The position numbers and the translations under genes were made by a program. From the NCBI GenBank assembly GCA_041600575.1, contig JBFIJV010000002.1, positions 1 to 40,410 of the forward strand: a DNA stretch of 40,410 nt. The letters run 5' to 3'. A model generated the notes under the pieces. The model saw nothing but the letters and a program-made list of their open reading frames with translations, did no database searches and had not been told where the DNA came from. Origin of the DNA: Gammaproteobacteria bacterium (lineage in GTDB: Bacteria; Pseudomonadota; Gammaproteobacteria; Eutrophobiales; Eutrophobiaceae). Positions within the stretch are counted from its first letter, which is position 1; each line of letters begins with the position of its first letter. This document shows, one piece after another, positions 4,272 through 35,805 of this stretch.

Positions 4272-5282
4272 CTAGTCGGCTGCGAATTCAAACGAGTCTG
4301 AAAAAATCTGTTCCTTATTTAGTCCATTAGCAGGGAACGACTCAAGAATGGCTTTGATCATCGGCGGTGGTCCACAAGCATAAATATCATATGCAGACAG
4401 ATCAGCATGATCTTTTAATACGGCTTCATGCACAAAACCGGTTTTACCTTTCCAGCCATTCAGTTTGTCTACTTCAGATAATACTGGCTTATACTCAATG
4501 TGTTCGTGTTCTTTTGACCACTGTTTAGGAAGTTCATCAAGGTAGAGATCCGCACTGGTACGAGCACCCCAGTAGAATTGTATTGACCGTTTGTCATTAT
4601 TTTTTAGCGTGTATTCGATCAAACTTTTTACCGGAGCAAAGCCAGTGCCACCAGCAATCATAATTATTGGTCTGTCAGACTCGTGAAGTGTGAATTGACC
4701 TAGCGGACCTTCTATACGTAACAATGCTTTTTCAGTCAGATCTTTAAAGGCATATTCAGAAAACAAGCCACCGCCATAGTAACGTATGTGTAATTCCAGT
4801 CTTTGATCCTGTTCAGGTGGATTGGCCAAAGAAAAAGAACGACGTTTTCCGTCGCGCATCAAGATGTCGATATATTGTCCGGCCAGAAATTGCAGCCGTT
4901 CCGATTTAGGCAACTCCAGTATTAAACGGATGACATCTTCGCTCAGTTTTTCAAACCTGGTCACACGGCAGGGAAATTGCCTGAGTTTTATGTCTGCGGC
5001 TGATTCAATCGTACGTGCCTTGATGACCAGGTCGCTCGCTGCTTTTGCCTGGCATAATAAGGCATGGCCCTGCTTTTCATCTGCTGCGGTTAATCCCTCT
5101 GGTGAACCATTGGGATAAATTATTTTACCGGAAACAATTCTGGCCTTACATGAACCACACAGGCCGTTGCGACAGCCATAAGGTAAGCTGTGACCCTGGC
5201 GCAGCGCTGCTTCAAGCAAGGTTTCATTTTCCTTGACGACGAAATTAATATCTTGTTCTGAGAGTTGGACGTTGTATGACAT
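4272..5282 (-). CDS. 2Fe-2S ferredoxin / FNR-type flavin reductase fusion (the family usually annotated CDP-6-deoxy-delta-3,4-glucoseen reductase-like)
   Basis: Plant-type 2Fe-2S motif CRNGLCGSC...C, an RRSFS flavin-binding motif and a GGTGFAP NAD(P)H-binding motif. Confidence 0.85.
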   Translation of the reverse strand: MSYNVQLSEQDINFVVKENETLLEAALRQGHSLPYGCRNGLCGSCKARIVSGKIIYPNGSPEGLTAADEKQGHALLCQAKAASDLVIKARTIESAADIKLRQFPCRVTRFEKLSEDVIRLILELPKSERLQFLAGQYIDILMRDGKRRSFSLANPPEQDQRLELHIRYYGGGLFSEYAFKDLTEKALLRIEGPLGQFTLHESDRPIIMIAGGTGFAPVKSLIEYTLKNNDKRSIQFYWGARTSADLYLDELPKQWSKEHEHIEYKPVLSEVDKLNGWKGKTGFVHEAVLKDHADLSAYDIYACGPPPMIKAILESFPANGLNKEQIFSDSFEFAAD

Positions 5283-5330: not shown

Positions 5331-5990
5331 TTATTTATTGGGCAGACTTTTACTACTGTTTAGCCAACGAAGCAAGGGTTCCCATTGTTCACGGTCATAG
5401 TAAGTTTTAGAAGGCGCGAGTTCAAAGATACTTAAACCTCGTTCAGATGCATGTATATAGTTCTGACTGGCGCGTAGCATAGTCATGAACGGTAACTGTT
5501 TGCCATTAGGCAGTGTCAGTTTATCCAGATAATATTCCAGTTTTGCCGCGATCAAGGTGTCTTCTCTGACGCGATTAGCGACTGTCGCAATCTTTATTTT
5601 ATTATTAATCGTTCCTTTTAATGAGAACAGTTCATCAATAAATCGTTCTGCTGCGCGGATATCTACCGGAGAGGCAAGTATCGGCATGACCATGGTTTGT
5701 GCCTGGCTGAGAAATTTACTCAGTCGTTCATCACTGACACCGGCAGGCGTATCCATGACCAGAACATCGGTATCTTCCGGTACTTGTAAACTACCTTTTT
5801 CCAAAACAGCGCTATTGATTTGATGCTGATTCTCTGGTCTCACGCTCAGCCAGTCCTGGCTTGAGCGTTGCTGATCGCAATCTGCGAGCGTTACTTTTTT
5901 GCCATTGATTGAGAAATAGCCGGCGATATTGGTCGCAAGTGTGCTTTTACCACAGCCGCCTTTTGGATTTAGAACCAGTATGGTGCGCAT
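5331..5990 (-). CDS. ParA/MinD-family P-loop ATPase (orphan; no ParB-like partner visible)
   Basis: Deviant Walker A with the signature lysine (LNPKGGCGKSTLATN), a Walker A' motif (DCDQQ) and a Walker B-like motif (VLVMDTPAG). Confidence 0.85.
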   Translation of the reverse strand: MRTILVLNPKGGCGKSTLATNIAGYFSINGKKVTLADCDQQRSSQDWLSVRPENQHQINSAVLEKGSLQVPEDTDVLVMDTPAGVSDERLSKFLSQAQTMVMPILASPVDIRAAERFIDELFSLKGTINNKIKIATVANRVREDTLIAAKLEYYLDKLTLPNGKQLPFMTMLRASQNYIHASERGLSIFELAPSKTYYDREQWEPLLRWLNSSKSLPNK

Positions 5991-6039
5991 ATCGCTATTA
6001 AAACATTGTTGTTAAATGCTTGTAAACGAACATTTATCC

Positions 6040-6918
6040 TCATAGGAATGTGCCCTTTTGTGAATACAGCTTGAGTATCAACGGTGTCAGTATCAACTGC
6101 ATGGCGAATACCATTTTGCCTGCCGGCACAACAATGGTTTCCGGGCTGGACATCATTGAACCTTCCAGCATTTCCAATAGATAGCGAAAATCGACTTCGA
6201 TTTTTTCCATATTACGAATATGAATGACGCTGAAGCTCTCATCATTACTGGGTATAGCATCAGCCGCAAAAGGGTTGGATGTGTCGATAGTCGGGACCCG
6301 TTGAAAATTGATATCAGTGCGGGAAAATTGAGGCGTAATGTAATGCATATAATCGTGCATACGATCCAGAATAAGCTTGGTCGCATCCTCAGTCGTATAG
6401 CCTCTAAGGGCACGATCTCTGTGGATTTTCTGCATCCACTCAAGATTGATGATTGGTGTAAACCCGATCAACAGATCAACATACTGAGGAATATTGATGG
6501 TATCAGTTACCAGACCGCCATGTAGTCCCTCATAAAAGAGTAAATCCGAGTTTTGCTCAATCGGTTCCCACGGCGTTATGGAGCCAGGCGGTAATCCATG
6601 TTGAGATGCCTCTTTCGCATCATGGATGTAAAAGCGGCGTTTGCCAGTACCTTTTTCACTGTATTCTTTAAATAGTCCTTCGAGTTTATCGAAGAGATTC
6701 CCCTCTGGTCCAAAATGGGTCAGGTTTTCACCTTTTGCGGTGGCTTCGGCGCTTAGTTTTTCCATTTCAAAGCGATCATAACGATGGAAACAGTCACCCT
6801 CGATATATGCCGGGTGTATCCTGAGCTTACGAAACATGGTTTCAAACGCGTCTCTGGCAATACTGGTGCCTGCGCCGGATGAACCTGTTACGGCAATTAT
6901 TGGATGCTTATGTGACAT
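6040..6918 (-). CDS. prkB: Phosphoribulokinase
   Basis: MSHKHPIIAVTGSSGAGTS...EGDCFHRYDRFEM parallels E. coli PrkB (MSAKHPVIAVTGSSGAGTT...EGDSFHRYTRPEM). Length is 292 aa. Confidence 0.9.
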   Translation of the reverse strand: MSHKHPIIAVTGSSGAGTSIARDAFETMFRKLRIHPAYIEGDCFHRYDRFEMEKLSAEATAKGENLTHFGPEGNLFDKLEGLFKEYSEKGTGKRRFYIHDAKEASQHGLPPGSITPWEPIEQNSDLLFYEGLHGGLVTDTINIPQYVDLLIGFTPIINLEWMQKIHRDRALRGYTTEDATKLILDRMHDYMHYITPQFSRTDINFQRVPTIDTSNPFAADAIPSNDESFSVIHIRNMEKIEVDFRYLLEMLEGSMMSSPETIVVPAGKMVFAMQLILTPLILKLYSQKGTFL

Positions 6919-7082
6919 AATGTTTAGGTTATCCTTTGATCAAAACTTCTTCTATTTTTAATTAATCTGTTTCGTGACATCGGCCGGTTAAAAGCAATGA
7001 CATAGGCAAGCTATACATTGCACAATTCCACTCTCACGGGCATTATAAGACATATAACACGCTGATTTAAAAGGGGAATAGT

Positions 7083-8858
7083 TTGGGCTCGTCAGTTAAT
7101 ACAGATATTATCTTATATCGCAGGCTATTAAGCTATGTTGTTCCTTATTGGCGTGTATTTTTATTATCCATAATCAGCATGATTGTGCTGGCTGCCACCG
7201 ATCCTGCAATTCCCGCCTTGATGCAGCCATTGTTGAATGGCGCATTTATTGATAAGGATCCACAGACCATAGCACTCATGCCATTTTTGTTTGTGGGCTT
7301 ATTTGCGATCAGGGGTCTAGCTGCTTATGTTAGTGGTGTTTCTCTGAATTGGGTCGCGAACAAGGTGGTCATGGACTTACGCCGGGTGATGTTCGAGAAA
7401 TTAATTGATTATCCAACCAGCTTTTTCGATGGCAACCGTTCCGGAAGTTTGATGTCACGTTTTACCTATGATGTAACTCAGATAAAGGAAGCTTCCGCCA
7501 ATGCCATTTCAACTCTGGTCAGAGACACAATATCGGTAGTTGGGCTGTTGGGGTGGATGTTTTATATCGATTGGACTATGGCGCTGATCTGTATGCTTGG
7601 TGCGCCACTGATCGGCATAATTATATTAATAATTAAACGTCGGCTGCGTAAGATGAGTCGTAAAGTTCAGGATACGATGGGTGATATACATCATGTGCTT
7701 AATGAATGTTTTGACGGACACAAGGTGATCAAACTTTATGGTGGGCAGGGAGTAGAAAAAAAACGCTTCTTTAATACAATAAATGCACACCGTCGGTTCG
7801 CTATGAAATTTATTAGTGCTTCAGCAGCAACTGGTCCATCAATACAAATGATTACGGCTTTTCTTCTCGCCATCATCATCTATATCGCAACACAACAAGC
7901 ATCTACAAATAGTTTACTGGTCGGTGACTTTGTTTCTTTCTTCGCTGCAGTTGCCATGATACTCGGGCCTTTGAAAAGGCTGGCGGGTATTAACGAACAC
8001 ATTCAGAAAGGTCTGGCTGCATGTGAAAGTGTCTTTTATTTACTGGACTCTGACGTAGAACCGCAATCGGGGAGTAAGGATTTAATCGATGTAAAAGGCA
8101 AGATTGAATTTAAAAATGTGTCTTATCGTTATGCGGAATCGGAAACGAAAGCGCTGGATTCAATTAATTTTGTTGTTCAGCCAGGACAAACTATTGCACT
8201 TGTTGGTGAATCAGGTAGTGGTAAGACGACACTTGCTAATTTAATTCCCCGGTTTTATGAACTGGATTCAGGCGTCATTTATTATGATGATATAGATATA
8301 AGTGAACTGTCATTATTATCGCTACGTAGGAATATTGCTTATGTTAGTCAGGATGTTGTTTTGTTTAATGATACTGTTCGAAACAATATTGCCTATGGTG
8401 ATCTTGAAGATGCATCGGATGAAGCGGTCTGGGCCGCGGCCGAAGCAGCGTGTGCAACGGAATTTATTAATGAGTTACCGGAGAAAATGTCTACCTTTAT
8501 TGGAGAAGATGGCACCCGATTATCTGGCGGTCAACGTCAACGCCTGGCGATTGCCCGGGCACTGTTAAAAGATGCCCGTTTGTTAATACTGGACGAAGCA
8601 ACCTCCTCGCTTGATACACGTTCCGAACGACATATTCAGGCTGCTCTGGAGAATGTTAAAAAAGGGCGCACATCGTTAATCATCGCGCACCGATTATCTA
8701 CTATTGAAAATGCAGATCATATAATTGTGCTGGATAAAGGCCGAATTGTTGAGCAGGGCAAGCATAGCGAATTATTAAAATTACAAAATCATTACGCCAG
8801 ACTTCATCAGGTACAGTTTTGTAATCAAGGAAAGTCAGAAGTTAAATATGAGACATAA
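7083..8858 (+). CDS. msbA: Lipid A export ABC transporter, fused permease/ATPase
   Basis: TTG start. Six-helix ABC exporter transmembrane domain followed by an NBD with Walker A (GESGSGKTT), the signature LSGGQRQR and Walker B (LLILDEATS). The 591 aa length is typical of MsbA. Confidence 0.88.
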   Translation: MGSSVNTDIILYRRLLSYVVPYWRVFLLSIISMIVLAATDPAIPALMQPLLNGAFIDKDPQTIALMPFLFVGLFAIRGLAAYVSGVSLNWVANKVVMDLRRVMFEKLIDYPTSFFDGNRSGSLMSRFTYDVTQIKEASANAISTLVRDTISVVGLLGWMFYIDWTMALICMLGAPLIGIIILIIKRRLRKMSRKVQDTMGDIHHVLNECFDGHKVIKLYGGQGVEKKRFFNTINAHRRFAMKFISASAATGPSIQMITAFLLAIIIYIATQQASTNSLLVGDFVSFFAAVAMILGPLKRLAGINEHIQKGLAACESVFYLLDSDVEPQSGSKDLIDVKGKIEFKNVSYRYAESETKALDSINFVVQPGQTIALVGESGSGKTTLANLIPRFYELDSGVIYYDDIDISELSLLSLRRNIAYVSQDVVLFNDTVRNNIAYGDLEDASDEAVWAAAEAACATEFINELPEKMSTFIGEDGTRLSGGQRQRLAIARALLKDARLLILDEATSSLDTRSERHIQAALENVKKGRTSLIIAHRLSTIENADHIIVLDKGRIVEQGKHSELLKLQNHYARLHQVQFCNQGKSEVKYET

Positions 8859-10260: not shown

Positions 10261-12261
10261 TTATTTAGTTTCTATTGATAGAGGTCTATTGGGCCTGAAT
10301 GATCTTATCGCTTTTTTCAATTGTGACAGTTTGTCATAGTTGGAGCGGTAACGAATATAAACATATAGATCCGTTATAGCCTGTATGTCTTTACCATGCT
10401 CTTTTCCCTCGAAGGTCAATCTTTTCGCATAATCAATTGGGCCTTCATATGATTTTCTGGGTAACCCGGCCCGCGCCATTTTATTACAAAATAGATCATA
10501 ATATTTCTTCGCCGGGTCGCGAGATACGGGCCTTTTTGTGAACATGTAAACTGCTATTGCAGAAACAATAATACCGATAAAAAACAACAAGAGCAGGGTT
10601 AATTCTTTCCAGTCTATATCATCGAACCCCAGTTTTTGCAGGAAAAGTTTTTGTCTTTCGGGGCTGTATCCCAGAACCCATTGCGCCCATTGGTAGTTGA
10701 TCATATCAACAGTGTTACGAATTTGTTGCCAAAAACGAACCGCAGTAGCGTTGTTCTTTAGTCCCAGGGGAATATCTATAATGGCTTCAGGTATTGAACT
10801 TTCAATTCCCTCACTCAGTCTTGATGGTGAAACAATTGAGGTAGGATCAATTCGAATCCAGCCTTTTTCATCGAGCCAAACTTCTGTCCACGCATGAGCA
10901 TGGTGTTGTCTTATGATTAAATAATTGCCGACCGGATTTATTTCTCCACCCAGATAACCGGTTACCACCCGCGCCGGGATTCCGGCGGCACGCATAAGAA
11001 TAGTAAAAGCAGACGCGTAGTGTTCACAAAATCCTTGCCGTGTATCAAACAAAAATTCATCAACCATATCGCCCGTCATGAGTGGCGGGTTTAATGTATA
11101 GATAAAATTTTTCTGTTTTAACCATTCAATAGCAGCATTGAGAATCAATTCAGGGTCAGCAAAGTCGTTTTTTAATTTTGACGCGAGCGCTCTCGTTCGG
11201 GGGTGATTGAGTTCCGGCAGTATTAACCCACGCTGTAAATCTTTATCATCTTCTGTCCAATGCCTGTAGCTGCTATGTGAAGTCAAGCTATATGCCTTTC
11301 GCGCACGAACAGGTTCACGGGATTTTAATTGAAGGTCATACGTCAGGTAGGTCTTGTCCGGGAGGTTGGATATCATCTCAAGACCAAACAACCATTTTTT
11401 ATTAGTAGGCTCAATAGTGACATTATAGTTGATTGAATCACCTGTAAATTCGATTTGTTCGTGACGTCGGCTTGAGTCGGCTTTGCCCGTTGTCCATTTT
11501 CGACCATCTGTTTGCCAGAGAACCGGGCCACGCCAATATAGTTTCGATTGGTTCGGGATCTGATCAGCGAAGCTTACCCGAAAAGCGACTTCTCTGGATT
11601 GTACAAGTTTACTGATAGTACCCGGCGACATCTGATCATCGATTCCGGTAACACCGGTAAACGCATCTTTAGGAATACCCCACAAAGGGCCATTGACTCG
11701 TGGAAACAGGATAAACAGGATTAACAGGATAGGAATGGATTGTATCAACAACGTTGATGATAGTTTCAGGCGTTCAGGCAAATTGAGTTGTTGTTCAGTA
11801 TCATTAAAATTAATTAATCCTGCGGTCATGATTATCATGACAAAGAGCATGTATGTTGCTGTTGGAATAGTTTGACTATAAAAAAAGTTTGTAATGATCA
11901 GAAAGTAACCAAGATAGGTGCAGATATAAAAGTCTCGTTTAGAGTTACTTTCAAAAATTTTAAGCGCTGCCAGCATAACTAATAGCGCAATACCTACATC
12001 ACGCCCGGCCAGGGTTCCATAACTTCCATATACACCGAAAACACCAGCAAGCATAATGATTAAACGGATGATATTGATGCTCGATTTTTGATTTGACCAG
12101 AGTAGCGGTAAACGAAGTGGAAGAATAATACGGATAGCCAGTAATCCCACATGCAATGCCGGGATCCAGATTGGTAAACGTTGCCAATGAGGAAAACTGG
12201 CCAGTGCAATGCCTATGACGAGCCATGTGATTTTATTAATATCCAGCTCTTGTTTAATCAT
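10261..12261 (-). CDS. tgpA: TgpA-like membrane transglutaminase (polytopic N-terminal domain plus transglutaminase core)
   Basis: About 6 N-terminal transmembrane helices. Transglutaminase core with catalytic Cys (RQGFCEHYASAF) and downstream HAWTEVW...IRIDPT (His/Asp). A C-terminal transmembrane helix. It follows the MoxR and DUF58 genes, as in the Pseudomonas aeruginosa tgpA locus. Confidence 0.85.
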   Translation of the reverse strand: MIKQELDINKITWLVIGIALASFPHWQRLPIWIPALHVGLLAIRIILPLRLPLLWSNQKSSINIIRLIIMLAGVFGVYGSYGTLAGRDVGIALLVMLAALKIFESNSKRDFYICTYLGYFLIITNFFYSQTIPTATYMLFVMIIMTAGLINFNDTEQQLNLPERLKLSSTLLIQSIPILLILFILFPRVNGPLWGIPKDAFTGVTGIDDQMSPGTISKLVQSREVAFRVSFADQIPNQSKLYWRGPVLWQTDGRKWTTGKADSSRRHEQIEFTGDSINYNVTIEPTNKKWLFGLEMISNLPDKTYLTYDLQLKSREPVRARKAYSLTSHSSYRHWTEDDKDLQRGLILPELNHPRTRALASKLKNDFADPELILNAAIEWLKQKNFIYTLNPPLMTGDMVDEFLFDTRQGFCEHYASAFTILMRAAGIPARVVTGYLGGEINPVGNYLIIRQHHAHAWTEVWLDEKGWIRIDPTSIVSPSRLSEGIESSIPEAIIDIPLGLKNNATAVRFWQQIRNTVDMINYQWAQWVLGYSPERQKLFLQKLGFDDIDWKELTLLLLFFIGIIVSAIAVYMFTKRPVSRDPAKKYYDLFCNKMARAGLPRKSYEGPIDYAKRLTFEGKEHGKDIQAITDLYVYIRYRSNYDKLSQLKKAIRSFRPNRPLSIETK

Positions 12262-12263
12262 CG

Positions 12264-13286
12264 CTATTTACCGTAACGTGCCAATGCTTCCAGGCAGCGT
12301 TCTTTGTGATGAGAACCATGTCCGGGTTCAATCACGGTGCCGGGGATCTCTAGTCCATAGTGGATGGATGCCGTATCAGCGAGCAATATCCAAAAACATA
12401 ATTGTGATAATCGCGATTCAATATCACTAAGCTGTGAAACACTATCCCAATTGAGAATTAATATTTGTGAGCCCTTGCCACTGAATTGCTTGACCAGCAA
12501 GCCTTGCTCTCTGGCAAACACCTTCCATGCGATTGAATTAACCGGATCGCCAGCCCTGTATTTTCTAAAGCCGGAGAAATCATCAGTGCCCGCTTGTGTT
12601 CCGTAGTCGATATTTAGTTCATGCAATGTGTTTAACGGCAGTTGTTTATGTCCTTTAGGTGCGGGATAAACCAGACATTCAAAATCGGGTTTGTAATAAG
12701 CCCATGCGCTAAAGATGCCTAATGGAAAATTGGTTGAGATTTTCAGGCGTTCTAACATTAATACGCCACGACTATTCGTTTGTATTGGATAATGACAGGT
12801 CGATTGTTTGCCTGCTTCAAGCCCCATAGAAACTATTGGCTGTTCAGTTTTTTTTCTAAATAATTTTTTTCTTGTGTCGTGACATTCCAGTTTTATTGAA
12901 AATCTTGCTGCACCAGCACGGTTGTCGAGTTGTATAGGGAAGAGTGCTTGTTGTCCGACAAATACGGCTTTAGGTTTGGTTGACGTTAGTATCAGGCCAG
13001 TCAGGTTTCGATAAGTATGTAACATACAGACCAACCCCAGGCTTGCCAGGAGAAAGCAGAGCACAAAGGCCATATTGTTGTTGTAGTTTATGGCGCCTAA
13101 TAACATGACAATGAGCATCAATCCATAGAGCCAGCCTTGAGCAGTAGGGAAGATATAAACACGTTGGCGCTTAAATTGATTGGCTGGAATACCTGTGTTG
13201 CCGGAAGCATCGGCAGGTGCACGTTCCAACACAACGGGTATCGCCATCAGGCCCCCTTTAAAAAAATTAAATCTTACTGCCATCAA
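12264..13286 (-). CDS. DUF58-family protein (vWA-like partner of MoxR ATPases)
   Basis: Two N-terminal transmembrane helices and a DUF58-like core (DDFSGFRKYRAGDPVNSIAWK). It is sandwiched between moxR and tgpA with 2-nt gaps. The start could instead be an internal Met. Confidence 0.8.
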   Translation of the reverse strand: MMAVRFNFFKGGLMAIPVVLERAPADASGNTGIPANQFKRQRVYIFPTAQGWLYGLMLIVMLLGAINYNNNMAFVLCFLLASLGLVCMLHTYRNLTGLILTSTKPKAVFVGQQALFPIQLDNRAGAARFSIKLECHDTRKKLFRKKTEQPIVSMGLEAGKQSTCHYPIQTNSRGVLMLERLKISTNFPLGIFSAWAYYKPDFECLVYPAPKGHKQLPLNTLHELNIDYGTQAGTDDFSGFRKYRAGDPVNSIAWKVFAREQGLLVKQFSGKGSQILILNWDSVSQLSDIESRLSQLCFWILLADTASIHYGLEIPGTVIEPGHGSHHKERCLEALARYGK

Positions 13287-13288
13287 CC

Positions 13289-14245
13289 TTAAGGTATAGG
13301 AACGTTCTGAATTAAATGTTCGGCTGGCTGCAAAGCTTCTTTGTCAGAAACTTCATAATTAAACTGAAGACGATGTCCAATAACGCCAGGCAATATTGCC
13401 TGTATATCTTCAGGTAATACATGTTCATGTGCGTGTAACAGAGCCCATGCCTTTGCGGCACTTAGAATGGCCAATCCTGCACGCGGTGATAAACCATGTG
13501 AGTAATTGCCCGAGGTGCGACTAAACTCAAGTAAGTTTTGTAAATAATCAAGAATGGCATCTGCAACGTGTACGTGCACCAGTTGTTTTTGCAGTTGTAT
13601 TAATTCTGTGCCTGATAGAACAGCTTCAGTATCTTCCAGCAATTGTTTTCTGTCTTTACCATTTAGTAACTCGCGCTCTGCAACATTGTCTGGATAACCT
13701 AATTCTATCCGCATCAGAAAACGATCCAGTTGTGATTCGGGTAATGCAAATGTGCCGACCTGATTCATCGGGTTTTGGGTGGCAATCACAAAAAACGGTT
13801 CCGGCAAGGACCTTGTTTCGTTATCTGTTGTGACCTGATACTCAGCCATGGCTTCGAGTAATGCACTTTGCGTTCTTGGTGTTGCTCTATTGATCTCATC
13901 GGCTAACAGCACGTTGGAAAAGACCGGGCCCTGATGAAAATCAAATTTATTAGTATCGCGGTTATATACTGATACACCCAGGATATCTGCTGGTAGTAAG
14001 TCGCTAGTGAACTGTATGCGTTGGTATTGTAAACCCATTACTTTAGCAAGCGTGTGTGCCAGTGTTGTCTTGCCAACGCCGGGTGTGTCTTCAATTAACA
14101 GATGACCCCTGGCAATCATGCAGGCTATGGCAAGTTTAATCGCATTATTTTTGCCCAGAATAATTTTGCTAATTGCGTTGATGACATTATCAAGCTTAAT
14201 AATGTTAGCTGAAGCAGAATTAATATCTTCTGTCATGTTCATCAT
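13289..14245 (-). CDS. MoxR-family AAA+ ATPase
   Basis: Walker A (EDTPGVGKTTLA), Walker B (LLADEINRA) and sensor motif (ATQNP), in a 318 aa protein typical of MoxR. Its start overlaps the pmbA stop (TAATG at 14245). Confidence 0.9.
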   Translation of the reverse strand: MMNMTEDINSASANIIKLDNVINAISKIILGKNNAIKLAIACMIARGHLLIEDTPGVGKTTLAHTLAKVMGLQYQRIQFTSDLLPADILGVSVYNRDTNKFDFHQGPVFSNVLLADEINRATPRTQSALLEAMAEYQVTTDNETRSLPEPFFVIATQNPMNQVGTFALPESQLDRFLMRIELGYPDNVAERELLNGKDRKQLLEDTEAVLSGTELIQLQKQLVHVHVADAILDYLQNLLEFSRTSGNYSHGLSPRAGLAILSAAKAWALLHAHEHVLPEDIQAILPGVIGHRLQFNYEVSDKEALQPAEHLIQNVPIP

Positions 14246-15594
14246 TATTCCCCGGCTACGGTCAATCCATCGATCATGACAGATCCGGTTAACACGTTTC
14301 CTCTTGGATCAACGTCATTACCAATACTGATAATATTTTTATACATGTCGATTAAATTTCCGGCCACGGTTATTTCTTCAACAGGATAAACCAGTTCACC
14401 ATTCTCCACCCAAAACCCCGACGCACCTCGTGAGTAATCACCGGTGACCTGATTGACGCCAAAACCGATCATGTCGGTAATCAACAGTCCCGTGCCCATA
14501 GCTTTGACCATCTTGTCCAGATCGTCCGGCCCCGTTTCTATGACAAGGTTATGCACGCCGCCGGCATTACCGGTGGTTTGTAATCCGAGTTTTCGTGCCG
14601 AGTAACCACTTAACACATAATCTTGTAGTATGCCGTCTTTGATAATATCGCGATCTCTGGTGGCAACACCATCATTATCAAACGGGGCACTACCCAATGC
14701 CTTTTTAATATGTGGCTGTTCTCTTATATTGATATGGTCTGCAAAAACCTGCTCACCTTTCTTATCAAGTAAAAAACTGGCACGTCGATAAAGACTACCG
14801 CCGGAGATGGCCGTAATGAAGGCAGAAAAAATACCTGAAGCAACGGGTGCTTCAAAAATGACTGGTATCTGTCGTGTCGATAACTTTCGTGCGCCTAATC
14901 GAGATACTGTTCTTCTTGCCGCTTCTTTGCTGATCGCACTAATTGATTCCAGTTCATTAAAATCACGCGTTTTGCTATACCAGCCATCCCGCTGCATTCC
15001 ATTTTTGTCTTCAGCGATGACAGTACAATCAATAGTGTGGCTAGACCATTTCCAGCCATCGATAAAACCATTGCTGTTGCCATAAAGGTTTATGCCCGAA
15101 TAGGTGCTAACGACAGAACCATCTGAATTCGATATACGTTTATCACAGGCAAATGCGGCCTGTTCACATTCAATGGCCATATTAATCGCAGCTTCAGGAG
15201 AAATAGACCAGGGATGGTAAAGGTCAAGATCCGGTACCTCTTTTGCCATCAACTCAGGTTCGACCAGACCGGCACATTCATCGCGACTGGCATACCTGGC
15301 AATATTGACTGCGGCTTGCACGGCATCTTTTAATGCGGCTTCACTAAAGTCCGAAGTGCTTGAGTTGCCTTTTTGTCCGTCGATATAGACGGTAATTCCA
15401 AGCCCCTTGTCGCGTTCATACTCAAGTTTATCAATTTCCCCTTTGCGCACATTGGCAGATAGACCTGCACCGGCACCAACATCAGCCTCCGCAGTGCTGG
15501 CGCCCATTGCTTTCGCCTGCGTCAAGACTGAGTCTATGATACGAATAAGTTCTTCACGGTTATCTGATAATGCGTTTGTATTCATGGCTTCCAT
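14245..15594 (-). CDS. pmbA: PmbA/TldE metalloprotease component
   Basis: A 449 aa protein with end-to-end resemblance to PmbA (C-terminal GDYSRGASGFWVENGE...PVEEITVAGN). Confidence 0.88.
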   Translation of the reverse strand: MEAMNTNALSDNREELIRIIDSVLTQAKAMGASTAEADVGAGAGLSANVRKGEIDKLEYERDKGLGITVYIDGQKGNSSTSDFSEAALKDAVQAAVNIARYASRDECAGLVEPELMAKEVPDLDLYHPWSISPEAAINMAIECEQAAFACDKRISNSDGSVVSTYSGINLYGNSNGFIDGWKWSSHTIDCTVIAEDKNGMQRDGWYSKTRDFNELESISAISKEAARRTVSRLGARKLSTRQIPVIFEAPVASGIFSAFITAISGGSLYRRASFLLDKKGEQVFADHINIREQPHIKKALGSAPFDNDGVATRDRDIIKDGILQDYVLSGYSARKLGLQTTGNAGGVHNLVIETGPDDLDKMVKAMGTGLLITDMIGFGVNQVTGDYSRGASGFWVENGELVYPVEEITVAGNLIDMYKNIISIGNDVDPRGNVLTGSVMIDGLTVAGE

Positions 15595-33258: not shown

Positions 33259-34686
33259 ATGTCTAATTCAAGTTTGTATTTATTCAGAAACGATTTACGT
33301 ATAAATGATAATCCAGCCTTGTATGCGGCATCTCATGCAGGTCAACCGCTCATCCTGCTTTTCATAATGGATGATACCGACGAAAACTGGAAGACGGGTC
33401 GTGCCAGTCAATGGTGGTTACATCATAGTCTGCGGGCTTTGAATAAAGACATTCAAAAACAGGGGGGCAGTCTAATTTTCAGGCGCGGCGATACGCTGAA
33501 AATACTGGACGAAATAATCAAGGCAGCCAAGGTTAATAAACTGTTCTTCAGTAGGGCGTATGAGCCAACGCAAAAATTGATAGAAGAAAAGATTTATGCA
33601 ACGTGGCATGAACAGATTGAAATAAAGCGTTATGGAGGTTATTTATTATTTGAACCTGAACATATTCGCACGGGTAGTGATCAGCCCTATAAAGTGTTTA
33701 CGCCTTTTTGGAAGACGTGTTTAAAGCAGTTGGAGCCGCGATTAACAAAACAACGTTCACTGGAATCGATCAGCTTCAGCAAGGTGAAAATCCGTCGCGA
33801 TAATCTGGATGATTGGAATTTATTACCAACAAAGCCTGATTGGACTGGTGGCCTACGTGACAATTGGCAACCCGGAGAAGCTGGTGCCCACAGTGCTTTA
33901 AAAGATTTTCTTCAAGCAGGACTAAAAAACTACAATGAAGATCGAAACCGACCGGATCGATCAGGAACATCTCGTTTATCACCGCATTTACATTTTGGTG
34001 AAATCGCACCGACCCGAATCTGGCAAGAAGTAAAACAATATAGCGACACACATGAAGATAATTGTGATGGGATGATGTCTTTTTTGCGTGAACTGGGCTG
34101 GCGTGATTTTTCTACACACCTATTGTTTAATTGGCCAGACATTCCTGCAAAGCCATTCCGCGCTGAATACCAATCCTTCCCATGGAAGAAAAATAAGAAG
34201 GCACTAACCGCATGGCAAAAAGGGCAAACTGGTTTTCCCATAGTCGATGCCGGGATGAGAGAATTATGGCATACAGGCTGGATGCACAATCGAGTACGAA
34301 TGATCGTTGCTTCATTTCTGGTGAAGCATTTATTAATTCATTGGCATGAAGGAGAACGCTGGTTCTGGGATACATTGGTCGATGCTGATTTGGCCAATAA
34401 TGCTGCCAGCTGGCAATGGGTTGCCGGTTCCGGCGCCGATGCTGCACCCTACTTCAGGGTGTTTAATCCCATCTTACAAGGCAAGAAATTCGACCCAAAT
34501 GGTGATTACGTTAAACACTGGATTCCGGAAATTAGACAGGTGCCATCTAAATTTATTCATGAACCCTGGCTCATGCCCACAGGCGAAGCAGGCATCGCTA
34601 CTGATTATCCGTCCCCTATTATTGAACATGAGGCTGGCAGAAAAGCAGCGCTGGATGCATTTAAACGATTCAAGGAGAATGGTTAA
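33259..34686 (+). CDS. phrB: Deoxyribodipyrimidine photolyase (class I CPD type)
   Basis: LYLFRNDLRINDNPAL at the N-terminus. FAD-binding domain with TSRLSPHLHFGEI, GWRDF, TGFPIVDAGMRELWHTGWMHNRVRMIVASFLVKHL and WQWVAGSGADAAPYFRVFNP. Confidence 0.93.
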   Translation: MSNSSLYLFRNDLRINDNPALYAASHAGQPLILLFIMDDTDENWKTGRASQWWLHHSLRALNKDIQKQGGSLIFRRGDTLKILDEIIKAAKVNKLFFSRAYEPTQKLIEEKIYATWHEQIEIKRYGGYLLFEPEHIRTGSDQPYKVFTPFWKTCLKQLEPRLTKQRSLESISFSKVKIRRDNLDDWNLLPTKPDWTGGLRDNWQPGEAGAHSALKDFLQAGLKNYNEDRNRPDRSGTSRLSPHLHFGEIAPTRIWQEVKQYSDTHEDNCDGMMSFLRELGWRDFSTHLLFNWPDIPAKPFRAEYQSFPWKKNKKALTAWQKGQTGFPIVDAGMRELWHTGWMHNRVRMIVASFLVKHLLIHWHEGERWFWDTLVDADLANNAASWQWVAGSGADAAPYFRVFNPILQGKKFDPNGDYVKHWIPEIRQVPSKFIHEPWLMPTGEAGIATDYPSPIIEHEAGRKAALDAFKRFKENG

Positions 34687-34716
34687 CGTTTCAGAGTTGG
34701 TTACAGACAACCATTA

Positions 34717-34738
34717 TTCTGGTTAAAAACAACCAGAA
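34717..34738. promoter_or_regulatory. Perfect 8-bp inverted repeat TTCTGGTT-N6-AACCAGAA (either the phrB 3' hairpin or an upstream activator site for the sigma-54 promoter)
   Basis: TTCTGGTT at 34717-34724 and AACCAGAA at 34731-34738. No T-run follows. The repeat is centred about 95-105 bp upstream of the -24/-12 element, and the stretch between them is very AT-rich. Confidence 0.4.
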
Positions 34739-34820
34739 CCCACATAATTCATAACCAAATAATTAATCAGTAATTTTATAACTTATTGAAAAATATAAAA
34801 AATATTGTAATGCTAAAAAT

Positions 34821-34836
34821 TGGCACACGACCTGCA
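34821..34836 (+). promoter_or_regulatory. Candidate sigma-54 (-24/-12) promoter for the pqqA tandem
   Basis: TGGCAC-ACGAC-CTGCA compares with the consensus TGGCAC-N5-TTGCW, and the GG and GC dinucleotides have the correct 12-nt register. It lies 58 nt upstream of the first pqqA ATG. Confidence 0.55.
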
Positions 34837-34894
34837 TTATTAAGGGCAACTAAAGTTTAATACTTAACTTTTAACTTAAAATGAGGATACGACA

Positions 34895-34969
34895 ATGAAA
34901 TGGGAAACACCTGAATACAACGACATCCGTTTTGGTTTTGAAGTCACCATGTACATCAACAACAAATAA
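34895..34969 (+). CDS. pqqA: Pyrroloquinoline quinone precursor peptide PqqA (copy 1, 24 aa)
   Basis: Not in the ORF track. It encodes MKWETPEYNDIRFGFEVTMYINNK, which matches the PqqA signature (W..P....[IL]R.G.EVT.Y) including the cross-linked Glu-x3-Tyr pair. A GAGGA Shine-Dalgarno lies 7 nt upstream. Confidence 0.85.
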   Translation: MKWETPEYNDIRFGFEVTMYINNK

Positions 34970-35005
34970 GAAATTTATTTTTAACTTAGGCAGGAGGATA
35001 CGACA

Positions 35006-35080
35006 ATGAAATGGGAAACACCTGAATACAACGACATCCGTTTTGGTTTTGAAGTCACTATGTATATCAACAACAAGTAA
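35006..35080 (+). CDS. pqqA: Pyrroloquinoline quinone precursor peptide PqqA (copy 2, 24 aa)
   Basis: Not in the ORF track. The peptide is identical to copy 1 and differs only by three synonymous changes (ACC>ACT, TAC>TAT, AAA>AAG). An AGGAGGA Shine-Dalgarno lies 7 nt upstream. Confidence 0.85.
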   Translation: MKWETPEYNDIRFGFEVTMYINNK

Positions 35081-35100
35081 GAGACTTCCATCTCGGAATA

Positions 35101-35127
35101 AAAAAGGGGCTGAAAAGTCCCTTTTTT
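35101..35127. terminator. Bidirectional rho-independent terminator between the pqqA tandem and convergent dsbA
   Basis: AAAAA-GGGGCT-GAAA-AGTCCC-TTTTTT. This is a 6-bp stem (one G-U pair) closed by a GNRA tetraloop, with an A-run upstream and a T-run downstream. Confidence 0.85.
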
Positions 35128-35175
35128 ATTGCGCACGTTTTAATACTTATACATGCTAAATATCTAACCAGACTA

Positions 35176-35805
35176 TCATTCGTCTGCAGACATTTCTCCC
35201 CGTTCTTTCTCGATCAATTGATCAATAACCTTTAATACATTTTCAAAACTACCAGCTGTACTACCACTAACCATATATTTTCCATTAACAATAACTGCCG
35301 GTACACCAGTGATCTTATAACGTTGACCCATAACATAGGCCTGCTTAACCATGGTCTCTACTTCTTCCGATTCATATACCTTGGTAAATACATCCTCGTC
35401 GACACCATGTTTAACAAAAAAATCTTCGAAGTCATCGTCGTCATGAATATTTTTCTTTTGTTTGTGTATAGCATCAAATAACGGAGTATGAATATCTTCA
35501 AGAACGTCTAGTTTTTTCGCAGTGAAATAGGCCTTCGCATGAGGGATCCAGTTTTTTCGAAATATACCGGGCATACGTCTAAACTCGACATCGTCAGGTT
35601 TGGATTCGAGCCATTTACTGATATGTGGTTCAAAATCGAAACAATGTGGGCAGGCATACCAGAATACTTCCAGCACTTCTATTTTATCGCCGGTTTGTGT
35701 TGGTTGTGCCGGTGAGATAGTCACATAGCCTTGACCCTCAGCGCGAACTTGGCCACTAATTAAAAGAAATAGAAAGAGTGAAAAAGTGGTAACTAATTTT
35801 TTCAT
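35176..35805 (-). CDS. dsbA: Periplasmic thiol:disulfide oxidoreductase DsbA
   Basis: Signal peptide, active site WYACPHCFDFEP, and a C-terminal GVPAVIVNGKY cis-Pro loop region. Confidence 0.92.
   Translation of the reverse strand: MKKLVTTFSLFLFLLISGQVRAEGQGYVTISPAQPTQTGDKIEVLEVFWYACPHCFDFEPHISKWLESKPDDVEFRRMPGIFRKNWIPHAKAYFTAKKLDVLEDIHTPLFDAIHKQKKNIHDDDDFEDFFVKHGVDEDVFTKVYESEEVETMVKQAYVMGQRYKITGVPAVIVNGKYMVSGSTAGSFENVLKVIDQLIEKERGEMSADE

Follow-up and report, generated by a model that had tools for sequence, protein, structure and literature searches.

PqqA, the ribosomal precursor peptide of the cofactor pyrroloquinoline quinone (PQQ), is encoded in several methylotrophs by genes that stand apart from those of the enzymes that act on it. 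Methylophilaceae carry 3–12 pqqA copies to a single pqqBCDEFG set (PMC4109929), and the unlinked, unannotated pqqA of Methylosinus trichosporium OB3b is expressed about 40-fold over pqqBCDE (PMC3615186). The orphan pqqA copies of Methylorubrum extorquens (pqqA2 and pqqA3 in strain AM1) are differentially or separately regulated, and in Methylovorus sp. MP688, which has five copies, the supply of PqqA is rate-determining (PMC11317620). Here we describe a tandem pair of pqqA genes in the window, by which we mean the whole 40,410-bp contig of an uncultured gammaproteobacterium. The pair most probably forms a bicistronic PqqA operon under a single activator-dependent sigma-54 promoter, with the peptide matured in trans, a reading to which we assign a probability of about 0.72.

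The two short open reading frames (ORFs; Table 1) lie 111 bp apart, start to start, each preceded at about 7 nt by a Shine–Dalgarno sequence. They differ at 3 of 75 nucleotides (ACC/ACT, TAC/TAT and AAA/AAG), all third-position and all synonymous. Against Pfam PF08042, with a cut-off of 21.1 bits, the shared peptide reaches 43.4 bits, and against TIGR02107, where 20 is required, it reaches 47.1; its 24 residues, with E16-V-T-M-Y20 and K-W-E-T-P at positions 2–6, agree with the 23–29 or so expected of the family. The same E-X3-Y core and W-x-x-P leader are found in PqqA genes directly 5' of verified pqqB-E. Both ORFs are thus bona fide PqqA family members, and Glu16 and Tyr20 are the residues that become cross-linked. 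A preliminary description of this DNA, made from the letters alone, had reported two tandem, peptide-identical 24-codon pqqA genes lodged between photolyase and a convergent dsbA; the ORFs, their spacing, Shine–Dalgarno sequences and three silent changes are as it gave them, the search with PqqA models that it proposed returns both families above cut-off, and a Pfam scan of the flanks finds the two neighbours it named.

What that description did not see is the most informative feature of the locus, the sigma-54 and enhancer architecture upstream of copy 1; its overall account is borne out in part. Between photolyase and the first pqqA lie two inverted repeats, an IHF-like bending site and a −24/−12 element, in that order. 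The spacing of the −24 GG and −12 GC is that of the canonical TGGCAC-N5-TTGCW. The window contains two matches to the sigma-54 pattern where 0.16 would be expected, and TGGTT-N6-AACCA also occurs twice, both times upstream of the pqqA pair, against an expectation of 0.05. An alignment of eight orthologous upstream regions has a mean column identity of 63% and only five invariant blocks, namely the two dyads, the IHF-like TAACTTATTGA, the −24/−12 element and the ribosome-binding site. The IHF-like site was labelled by comparison with the IHF consensus, WATCAANNNNTTR; it is the complement of that sequence, with one mismatch in the window and none in a more distant relative (L122), and is seen in L122, L020, L106 and L023 as well as forming a conserved block of the upstream alignment. 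The second window match to the sigma-54 pattern, TGGCACTGGCTTTGCT at 4635–4650 (−), lies inside an ORF for a Fer2/FAD/NAD oxidoreductase (4272–5282) on the same strand with no dyad nearby, and is probably due to chance.

The same signals recur well beyond the immediate relatives. Across all loci collected, a sigma-54 score of at least 14 of 15.5 is attained upstream of pqqA in 29 of 126 regions, as compared with 0.8% of random 160-nt windows; the high scores are concentrated in the window's gammaproteobacterial clade and in Burkholderiales, and none of the high-scoring regions is of the Methylococcales or Methylophaga type. In its strict form the dyad is found 29 times in the 1.09 Mb of fetched loci against about one occurrence by chance, calculated from base odds, and with one degenerate position allowed per half-site it lies 165–250 nt before the pqqA start in more than 20 other loci. 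Among the carriers of this architecture is a cultured species, Methylohalomonas lacus (strain HMT 1, locus L020).

Downstream of copy 2 is a strong hairpin, predicted to fold at −24.7 kcal/mol (z = −5.4) in RNA of the plus strand and at −16.8 kcal/mol (z = −2.6) in that of the minus strand, and the 3' flank of the pair is orthologous to the 3' flank of the single-copy L122 gene. A consensus terminator scanner returned nothing for 34600–35300, a negative that we overrule given the strength of the folded hairpin; the scanner probably missed it because the A and U runs extend the stem. The spacer between the copies folds at −0.3 kcal/mol, no better than shuffled sequence, and neither a sigma-54 nor a sigma-70 motif precedes copy 2. 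With no hairpin or promoter in the spacer and a strong hairpin after copy 2, one bicistronic RNA is predicted, of about 285 nt and running from near 34847 to near 35131. The preliminary description had likewise proposed that the module has a promoter and terminator of its own and a transcript from roughly 34847 to 35127, which matches the −24/−12 element and the hairpin.

In the mechanism we propose, the two PqqA copies would supply PQQ precursor from this one operon, whose single sigma-54 promoter would be silent unless an enhancer-binding protein is active. Bound to the two dyads, and with the DNA bent at the IHF-like site, that protein would bring about open-complex formation; both cistrons would then be translated from their own ribosome-binding sites, and transcription would stop at the strong terminator common to dsbA. 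The activator would be a response regulator of the NtrC type with a HAMP histidine kinase as its partner, the two being encoded elsewhere in the source genome. PqqD/E, PqqB, PqqC and a protease, likewise encoded elsewhere, would presumably act in trans to mature the peptide. Each PQQ molecule would use up one peptide while the enzymes turn over, so that a separate, strongly expressed and duplicated pqqA would raise supply independently of the enzymes. The notion of a control point for precursor supply, raised in the preliminary description, fits what is published on orphan pqqA (PMC11317620, PMC3615186).

The nature of the activator is suggested by gene neighbourhood in relatives. In at least ten related loci (L006, L023, L049, L060, L075, L085, L108, L134/L136, L140 and L141) pqqA adjoins genes for a HAMP-HisKA-HATPase kinase and a REC-Sigma54_activat-HTH_8 regulator, usually divergent. 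Among NCBIfam equivalogs the regulator scores best on AtoC, at 356 bits against the 714 required, and it passes none of the cut-offs; its helix-turn-helix is nearly invariant between two genomes that share 73% identity overall. In L085, L108, L075, L134, L140 and L141 the wider context is also alike, with accA, tilS and then genes for VWA-FHA, MotA/ExbB, DUF302 and YkuD proteins on one side, and the kinase, the activator, a Pyr_redox_2 protein and DUF1244 on the other. The L122 genome (OZ271833.1) holds such a locus, L140, in which a second orphan pqqA, encoding an N9S peptide (about 8193–8267, −), stands between cytochrome b561 and the kinase/activator pair. In this lineage, then, pqqA occurs at two or more unlinked loci, and the window genome may contain copies beyond the pair seen here.

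A 262 kb contig of a related genome (ERZ27283524:k119_394832) carries an orphan pqqA beside the kinase/activator pair and, about 30 kb away, a pqqA-pqqBCDE operon, with a sigma-54 element and a dyad at both pqqA sites. The shared promoter and dyad tie the regulatory module to PQQ biosynthesis, and the contig is an instance of orphan pqqA and the enzymes coexisting at a distance. In the relative with both an orphan pqqA and pqqABCDE, genes of the tetrahydromethanopterin-type C1 pathway flank the pqq operon at 5382–8572 and 12157–12987 of locus L143 (DUF6513, DUF447, 4HFCP_synth, Pterin_4a and Pterin_bind), which suggests a methylotrophy-related context for that lineage.

In Burkholderia, Paraburkholderia and Variovorax a different sigma-54 activator homologue, 35–43% identical to the L085 regulator, is encoded immediately 5' of pqqA (L007, L008, L016, L031, L050, L055, L074, L082, L084, L101 and L121), and CGGCAC-N5-TTGC promoter-like elements precede pqqA in loci of these genera. 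Betaproteobacteria, too, may therefore have pqqA under sigma-54 control. In several Burkholderiaceae loci pqqA is followed by only a PqqD-like match, and a Burkholderiaceae pqqA that has been called a 'fragment' (PMC9088363) looks full length. For the Pseudomonas pqq operon, control by the regulator AgmR has been described, in an account that makes no mention of a sigma-54 promoter (PMC12997753). We found no description of sigma-54 or enhancer-binding-protein control of pqqA in the open-access literature, an absence that is not proof, and sigma-54/two-component control of pqqA is apparently undescribed.

It is unlikely, in our view, that an ordinary sigma-70 promoter or read-through from photolyase drives the pair, with the GG-N10-GC element and the dyads binding a repressor or being unrelated to expression. 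Motif matches are in themselves no evidence of function, no activator is encoded in the window, and rpoN was likewise not met in the scans of its ORFs, although no search was aimed at rpoN. Yet 34600–35300 contains no sigma-70 consensus where 3.0 would be expected by chance, the spacing and sequence of the −24/−12 element are invariant in orthologues in which the surrounding bases vary, and a sigma-54 activator gene repeatedly adjoins pqqA. Read-through is further opposed by five loci (L124, L129, L132, L135 and L138) that lack an adjoining photolyase and yet have the same upstream motifs.

Several further observations weigh against a sigma-54-driven PqqA operon served in trans, in addition to the lack of an activator and of rpoN among the window ORFs. 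Three loci (L127, L128 and L137) encode the identical peptide with no recognisable sigma-54 element or dyad; they are metagenome contigs of 32–33% GC in which pqqA has a different gene context. The promoter type is therefore not universal, and presumably another type serves the identical peptide there. The case for sigma-54 dependence and for binding at the dyads is one of conservation and gene neighbourhood, and another factor could bind the dyads. The window also encodes no PqqB, C, D or E and no PQQ-dependent enzyme. When the PqqC of L106 was used as a query it found 7,905 homologues, and among the best 120 listed, which are relatives of L106 at 81–92% identity, none lies on a contig of the window lineage. 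The operon as we read it would thus require pqqBCDE and rpoN elsewhere in the source genome.

The lack of PQQ enzyme genes near the pair, which the preliminary description had noted for the 40 kb, was reproduced by two approaches: none of 37 window ORFs scanned with Pfam encodes PqqB, C, D or E or any radical-SAM protein, and tblastn of the window with PqqB, C, D and E queries, taken from a Cycloclasticus locus and verified as TIGR equivalogs, gave nothing at E ≤ 1. For the 15 metagenome loci that encode the identical peptide, the fetched flanks of about 10 kb likewise contain no pqqB-E, and none lies within about 10 kb of pqqA in L139 or L140. These absences are what would be expected were the peptides not PQQ precursors here at all, but substrates of some other radical-SAM maturase, products exported to neighbours or metal-binding peptides. 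We consider this quite improbable. The score of the peptide is over double the equivalog cut-off, pqqB is directly preceded by a gene for near-identical PqqA in related Gammaproteobacteria (L012, L106 and L143), and an orphan copy with the same promoter type is found together with pqqA-pqqBCDE on one contig of a relative. All detectable PqqA homologues, moreover, appear to the TIGRFAMs curators to be PQQ precursors (PMC3531188).

As for the different radical-SAM maturase entertained in the preliminary description, no radical-SAM or PqqD-like gene adjoins any orphan copy examined, and use of one promoter type for both orphan pqqA and pqqA-pqqBCDE in a relative also speaks against it. Genes next to orphan pqqA encode photolyase, DsbA, YkuD, DUF302, MotA/ExbB, PilT-type ATPases and proteins with VWA-FHA or GGDEF domains, and the idea that they point to another maturase was rejected. 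We allow a slim chance to a further arrangement, in which the source organism would have several strongly conserved, sigma-54-induced pqqA genes and no pqqBCDE, the peptide being exported for maturation by neighbours or serving as substrate of an unrecognised enzyme, with the kinase/activator pair sensing some cue. TldD-type proteases are implicated in PQQ formation in Gluconobacter. The window itself has a gene for a PmbA metalloprotease of the TldD/PmbA family (14245–15594, −), which looks housekeeping, is 19 kb from the pair and shows no evidence of linkage to it.

Detachment from the enzyme genes is in any case common. A degenerate pattern scan with one genome per species gave at least 120 pqqA loci, mostly from Burkholderiales, and among the loci listed 114 pqqA genes had enough flank to be assessed, of which 80 have a pqq gene after them and the other 34 (30%) stand as orphans; tandem pairs occur also in L030, L071 and L118. 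The window pair, with two copies and no pqq enzyme gene within 40 kb, fits this class, in which a doubled and detached pqqA is nothing out of the ordinary. This frequency, together with the published multi-copy and unlinked pqqA genes, does not support the view in the preliminary description that the arrangement is exceptional.

Syntenic relatives with tandem pqqA are L139 (GCA_025450675.1, an 818 kb contig), L133 (86% DNA identity across purE-purK-phr-pqqA-pqqA-dsbA-cytc4), L124 and L135/L138; L129 and L132 have one pqqA at the site, as does the more distant L122, a metagenome-assembled chromosome of 2.85 Mb. The fetched flanks of these relatives contain no pqqB-E. The tandem is therefore present in five lineages including the window, in independent assemblies with differing nucleotide sequences, whose PurEK proteins are 77–91% identical and whose flanking DNA is 70–86% identical. 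In each, copy 1 ends in AAA and copy 2 in AAG, and the spacers are related. The peptide of copy 2 is invariant in all five, and that of copy 1 has N9S in L135/L138 and I21V in L139. Because the tandem and its AAA/AAG signature are common to lineages with this degree of PurEK divergence, we regard the duplication, on comparative grounds, as old and maintained, contrary to the recent duplication offered as an option in the preliminary description.

It is very improbable that copy 2 arose recently by neutral tandem duplication, or is an artefact of assembly, and has no selected function. Such an origin would account for there being only three differences in 75 nt, through little time for divergence, and short-read assemblers do struggle here, since three Logan contigs (L001, L002 and L003, 99.7% identical, from runs SRR35386189, SRR29257386 and SRR29257383) stop within copy 2 at window position 35044. 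Breaks are, however, expected inside a repeat, the five tandem lineages were assembled independently, and all lineages keep a strong Shine–Dalgarno sequence for copy 2 and its invariant peptide. Copy 1 differs by three nucleotides from the orthologue in L122, a genome whose synonymous sites are saturated, and also by three from copy 2, which argues against reading the small number as recency. The L122 coding sequence is 96.6% identical in nucleotides to window pqqA; recent horizontal transfer was considered as the cause and rejected, the surrounding promoter region being diverged except at the functional motifs. One point counts against a simple history. The PurEK tree nests the single-copy L129 and L132 among the tandem lineages, so that losses or repeated gains are needed, and both keep the AAA codon, which is awkward for one duplication followed by collapse through recombination.

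Tandem pqqA probably breaks short-read assemblies and is thereby under-counted in draft genomes, and more than two tandem copies could be hidden by such assembly.

Codon usage within the genes is under evident constraint. At conserved residues the fraction of identical codons between window pqqA and L122 is 86% (18/21), against 34–46% in flanking genes, and the two window copies compared with each other give the same 86%. Among 11 pqqA sequences, 11 of the 12 variable columns are third codon positions, and copy 1 uses a C-ending codon at 8/8 Tyr, Asn, Asp and Ile positions compared with 30% in other window genes (P = 6e-5). This pattern is as expected of translational selection on a very highly expressed gene, and high expression is predicted from it. 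Under such strong codon selection the three synonymous differences cannot date the duplication. A search of Rfam with 34500–35400 gave sub-threshold hits only, at 34809–34945 and 35042–35134 (+), to the Pseudomonas small RNA P11 (17 bits, gathering score 70) and STnc250 (21.5 against 42), most likely driven by the terminator and the AT-rich leader and not significant. That the conserved nucleotides act mainly as a regulatory RNA, the ORFs being incidental or a second role, is scarcely credible. In its favour are the unusual conservation of synonymous sites, the shortness of the predicted transcript, which would end in a terminator, and those weak Rfam hits. Against it, the variation is third-position with a nearly invariant peptide, the C-ending codon set is typical of translational selection, folding outside the terminator is no better than shuffled (z = −0.41) and every Rfam hit falls far under its gathering score.

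Table 1. Features of the tandem pqqA locus and its flanks, in window coordinates.
Feature	Position	Strand	Details
pqqA copy 1	34895–34969	+	24 codons and stop; encodes MKWETPEYNDIRFGFEVTMYINNK; ORF translation, Pfam, TIGRFAM
pqqA copy 2	35006–35080	+	same peptide as copy 1, last codon AAG; ORF translation
Spacer between copies	34970–35005	+	36 nt; holds the Shine–Dalgarno sequence of copy 2; no terminator, no promoter motif
Shine–Dalgarno of copy 1	34883–34887	+	GAGGA; read from sequence, conserved in upstream alignment
Shine–Dalgarno of copy 2	34992–34998	+	AGGAGGA; read from sequence
Putative sigma-54 promoter	34821–34836	+	TGGCAC-N5-CTGCA (TGGCACACGACCTGCA); −24 GG, −12 GC; predicted start near 34847
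Putative activator dyad 1	34698–34713		TGGTTACAGACAACCA, TGGTT-N6-AACCA; about 142 nt upstream of predicted start; putative NtrC-type binding site
Putative activator dyad 2	34720–34735		TGGTTAAAAACAACCA; centre 22 bp from dyad 1; about 120 nt upstream of predicted start
IHF-like bending site	34779–34791		TAACTTATTGAAA; between dyads and promoter; predicted from consensus
Bidirectional intrinsic terminator (predicted)	35097–35131		A-run, GGGGCU/AGUCCC stem, GAAA loop, U-run; common to pqqA pair and dsbA
Photolyase	33259–34686	+	upstream flank (Pfam)
dsbA	35176–35805	−	downstream flank, convergent to pqqA pair (Pfam)

Beyond dsbA, cytochrome c4 and engB also lie downstream of the pair. An exact look-up of the DsbA sequence gave no match.

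The pqqA pair adds an example of a PQQ precursor, consumed stoichiometrically, that is encoded apart from the catalytic enzymes and in more copies than they are. The more useful part of the locus is its putative regulatory module, in which a sigma-54 promoter, an IHF-like site and paired dyads stand before orphan or operon-linked pqqA, and in many marine and sediment Gammaproteobacteria a dedicated kinase/NtrC-type activator pair adjoins pqqA. If the proposed reading is true, the module would be a signal-dependent on/off switch for the supply of PQQ precursor, and the activator a candidate regulator of PQQ synthesis beyond the Pseudomonas and Methylobacterium models. The dyad and promoter could also serve as a search pattern for unannotated pqqA. 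Genes of 24 codons escape ORF cut-offs, and tandem copies break short-read contigs.

Among described systems the orphan pqqA genes of methylotrophs are closest, in that precursor genes outnumber, and are unlinked from, a single pqqBCDE(FG) set (PMC4109929, PMC3615186, PMC11317620); gene callers often overlook these genes, which are very highly expressed and under separate regulation, and precursor supply can limit PQQ output. In contrast to these, the window copies appear to be joined in a single bicistronic unit behind a conserved sigma-54/enhancer promoter, a promoter type for which we found no description in the papers searched, and the host is an uncultured marine gammaproteobacterium for which no PQQ enzyme gene was seen in the window. 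With the canonical pqqABCDE(F) operons of Klebsiella, Acinetobacter, Pseudomonas and the Cycloclasticus type the pair shares the peptide family, the W-x-x-P leader and the E-X3-Y core, as in the Cycloclasticus peptide MKWETPTYKDLRFGFEVTMYIYNR encoded directly upstream of verified pqqB-E, but what comes after pqqA in the window is a terminator and then a convergent dsbA, not pqqB. The paired upstream dyads, the IHF-like site and the −24/−12 element are those of NtrC-family systems of the NtrBC, AtoSC and ZraSR type, as is the domain order of the putative regulator (REC, AAA+ Sigma54_activat, HTH_8) and its partner HAMP-HisKA-HATPase kinase. Unlike NtrBC, AtoSC and ZraSR, this regulator, whose gene lies outside the window, would have as its only predicted targets the pqqA genes and the pqqABCDE operon.

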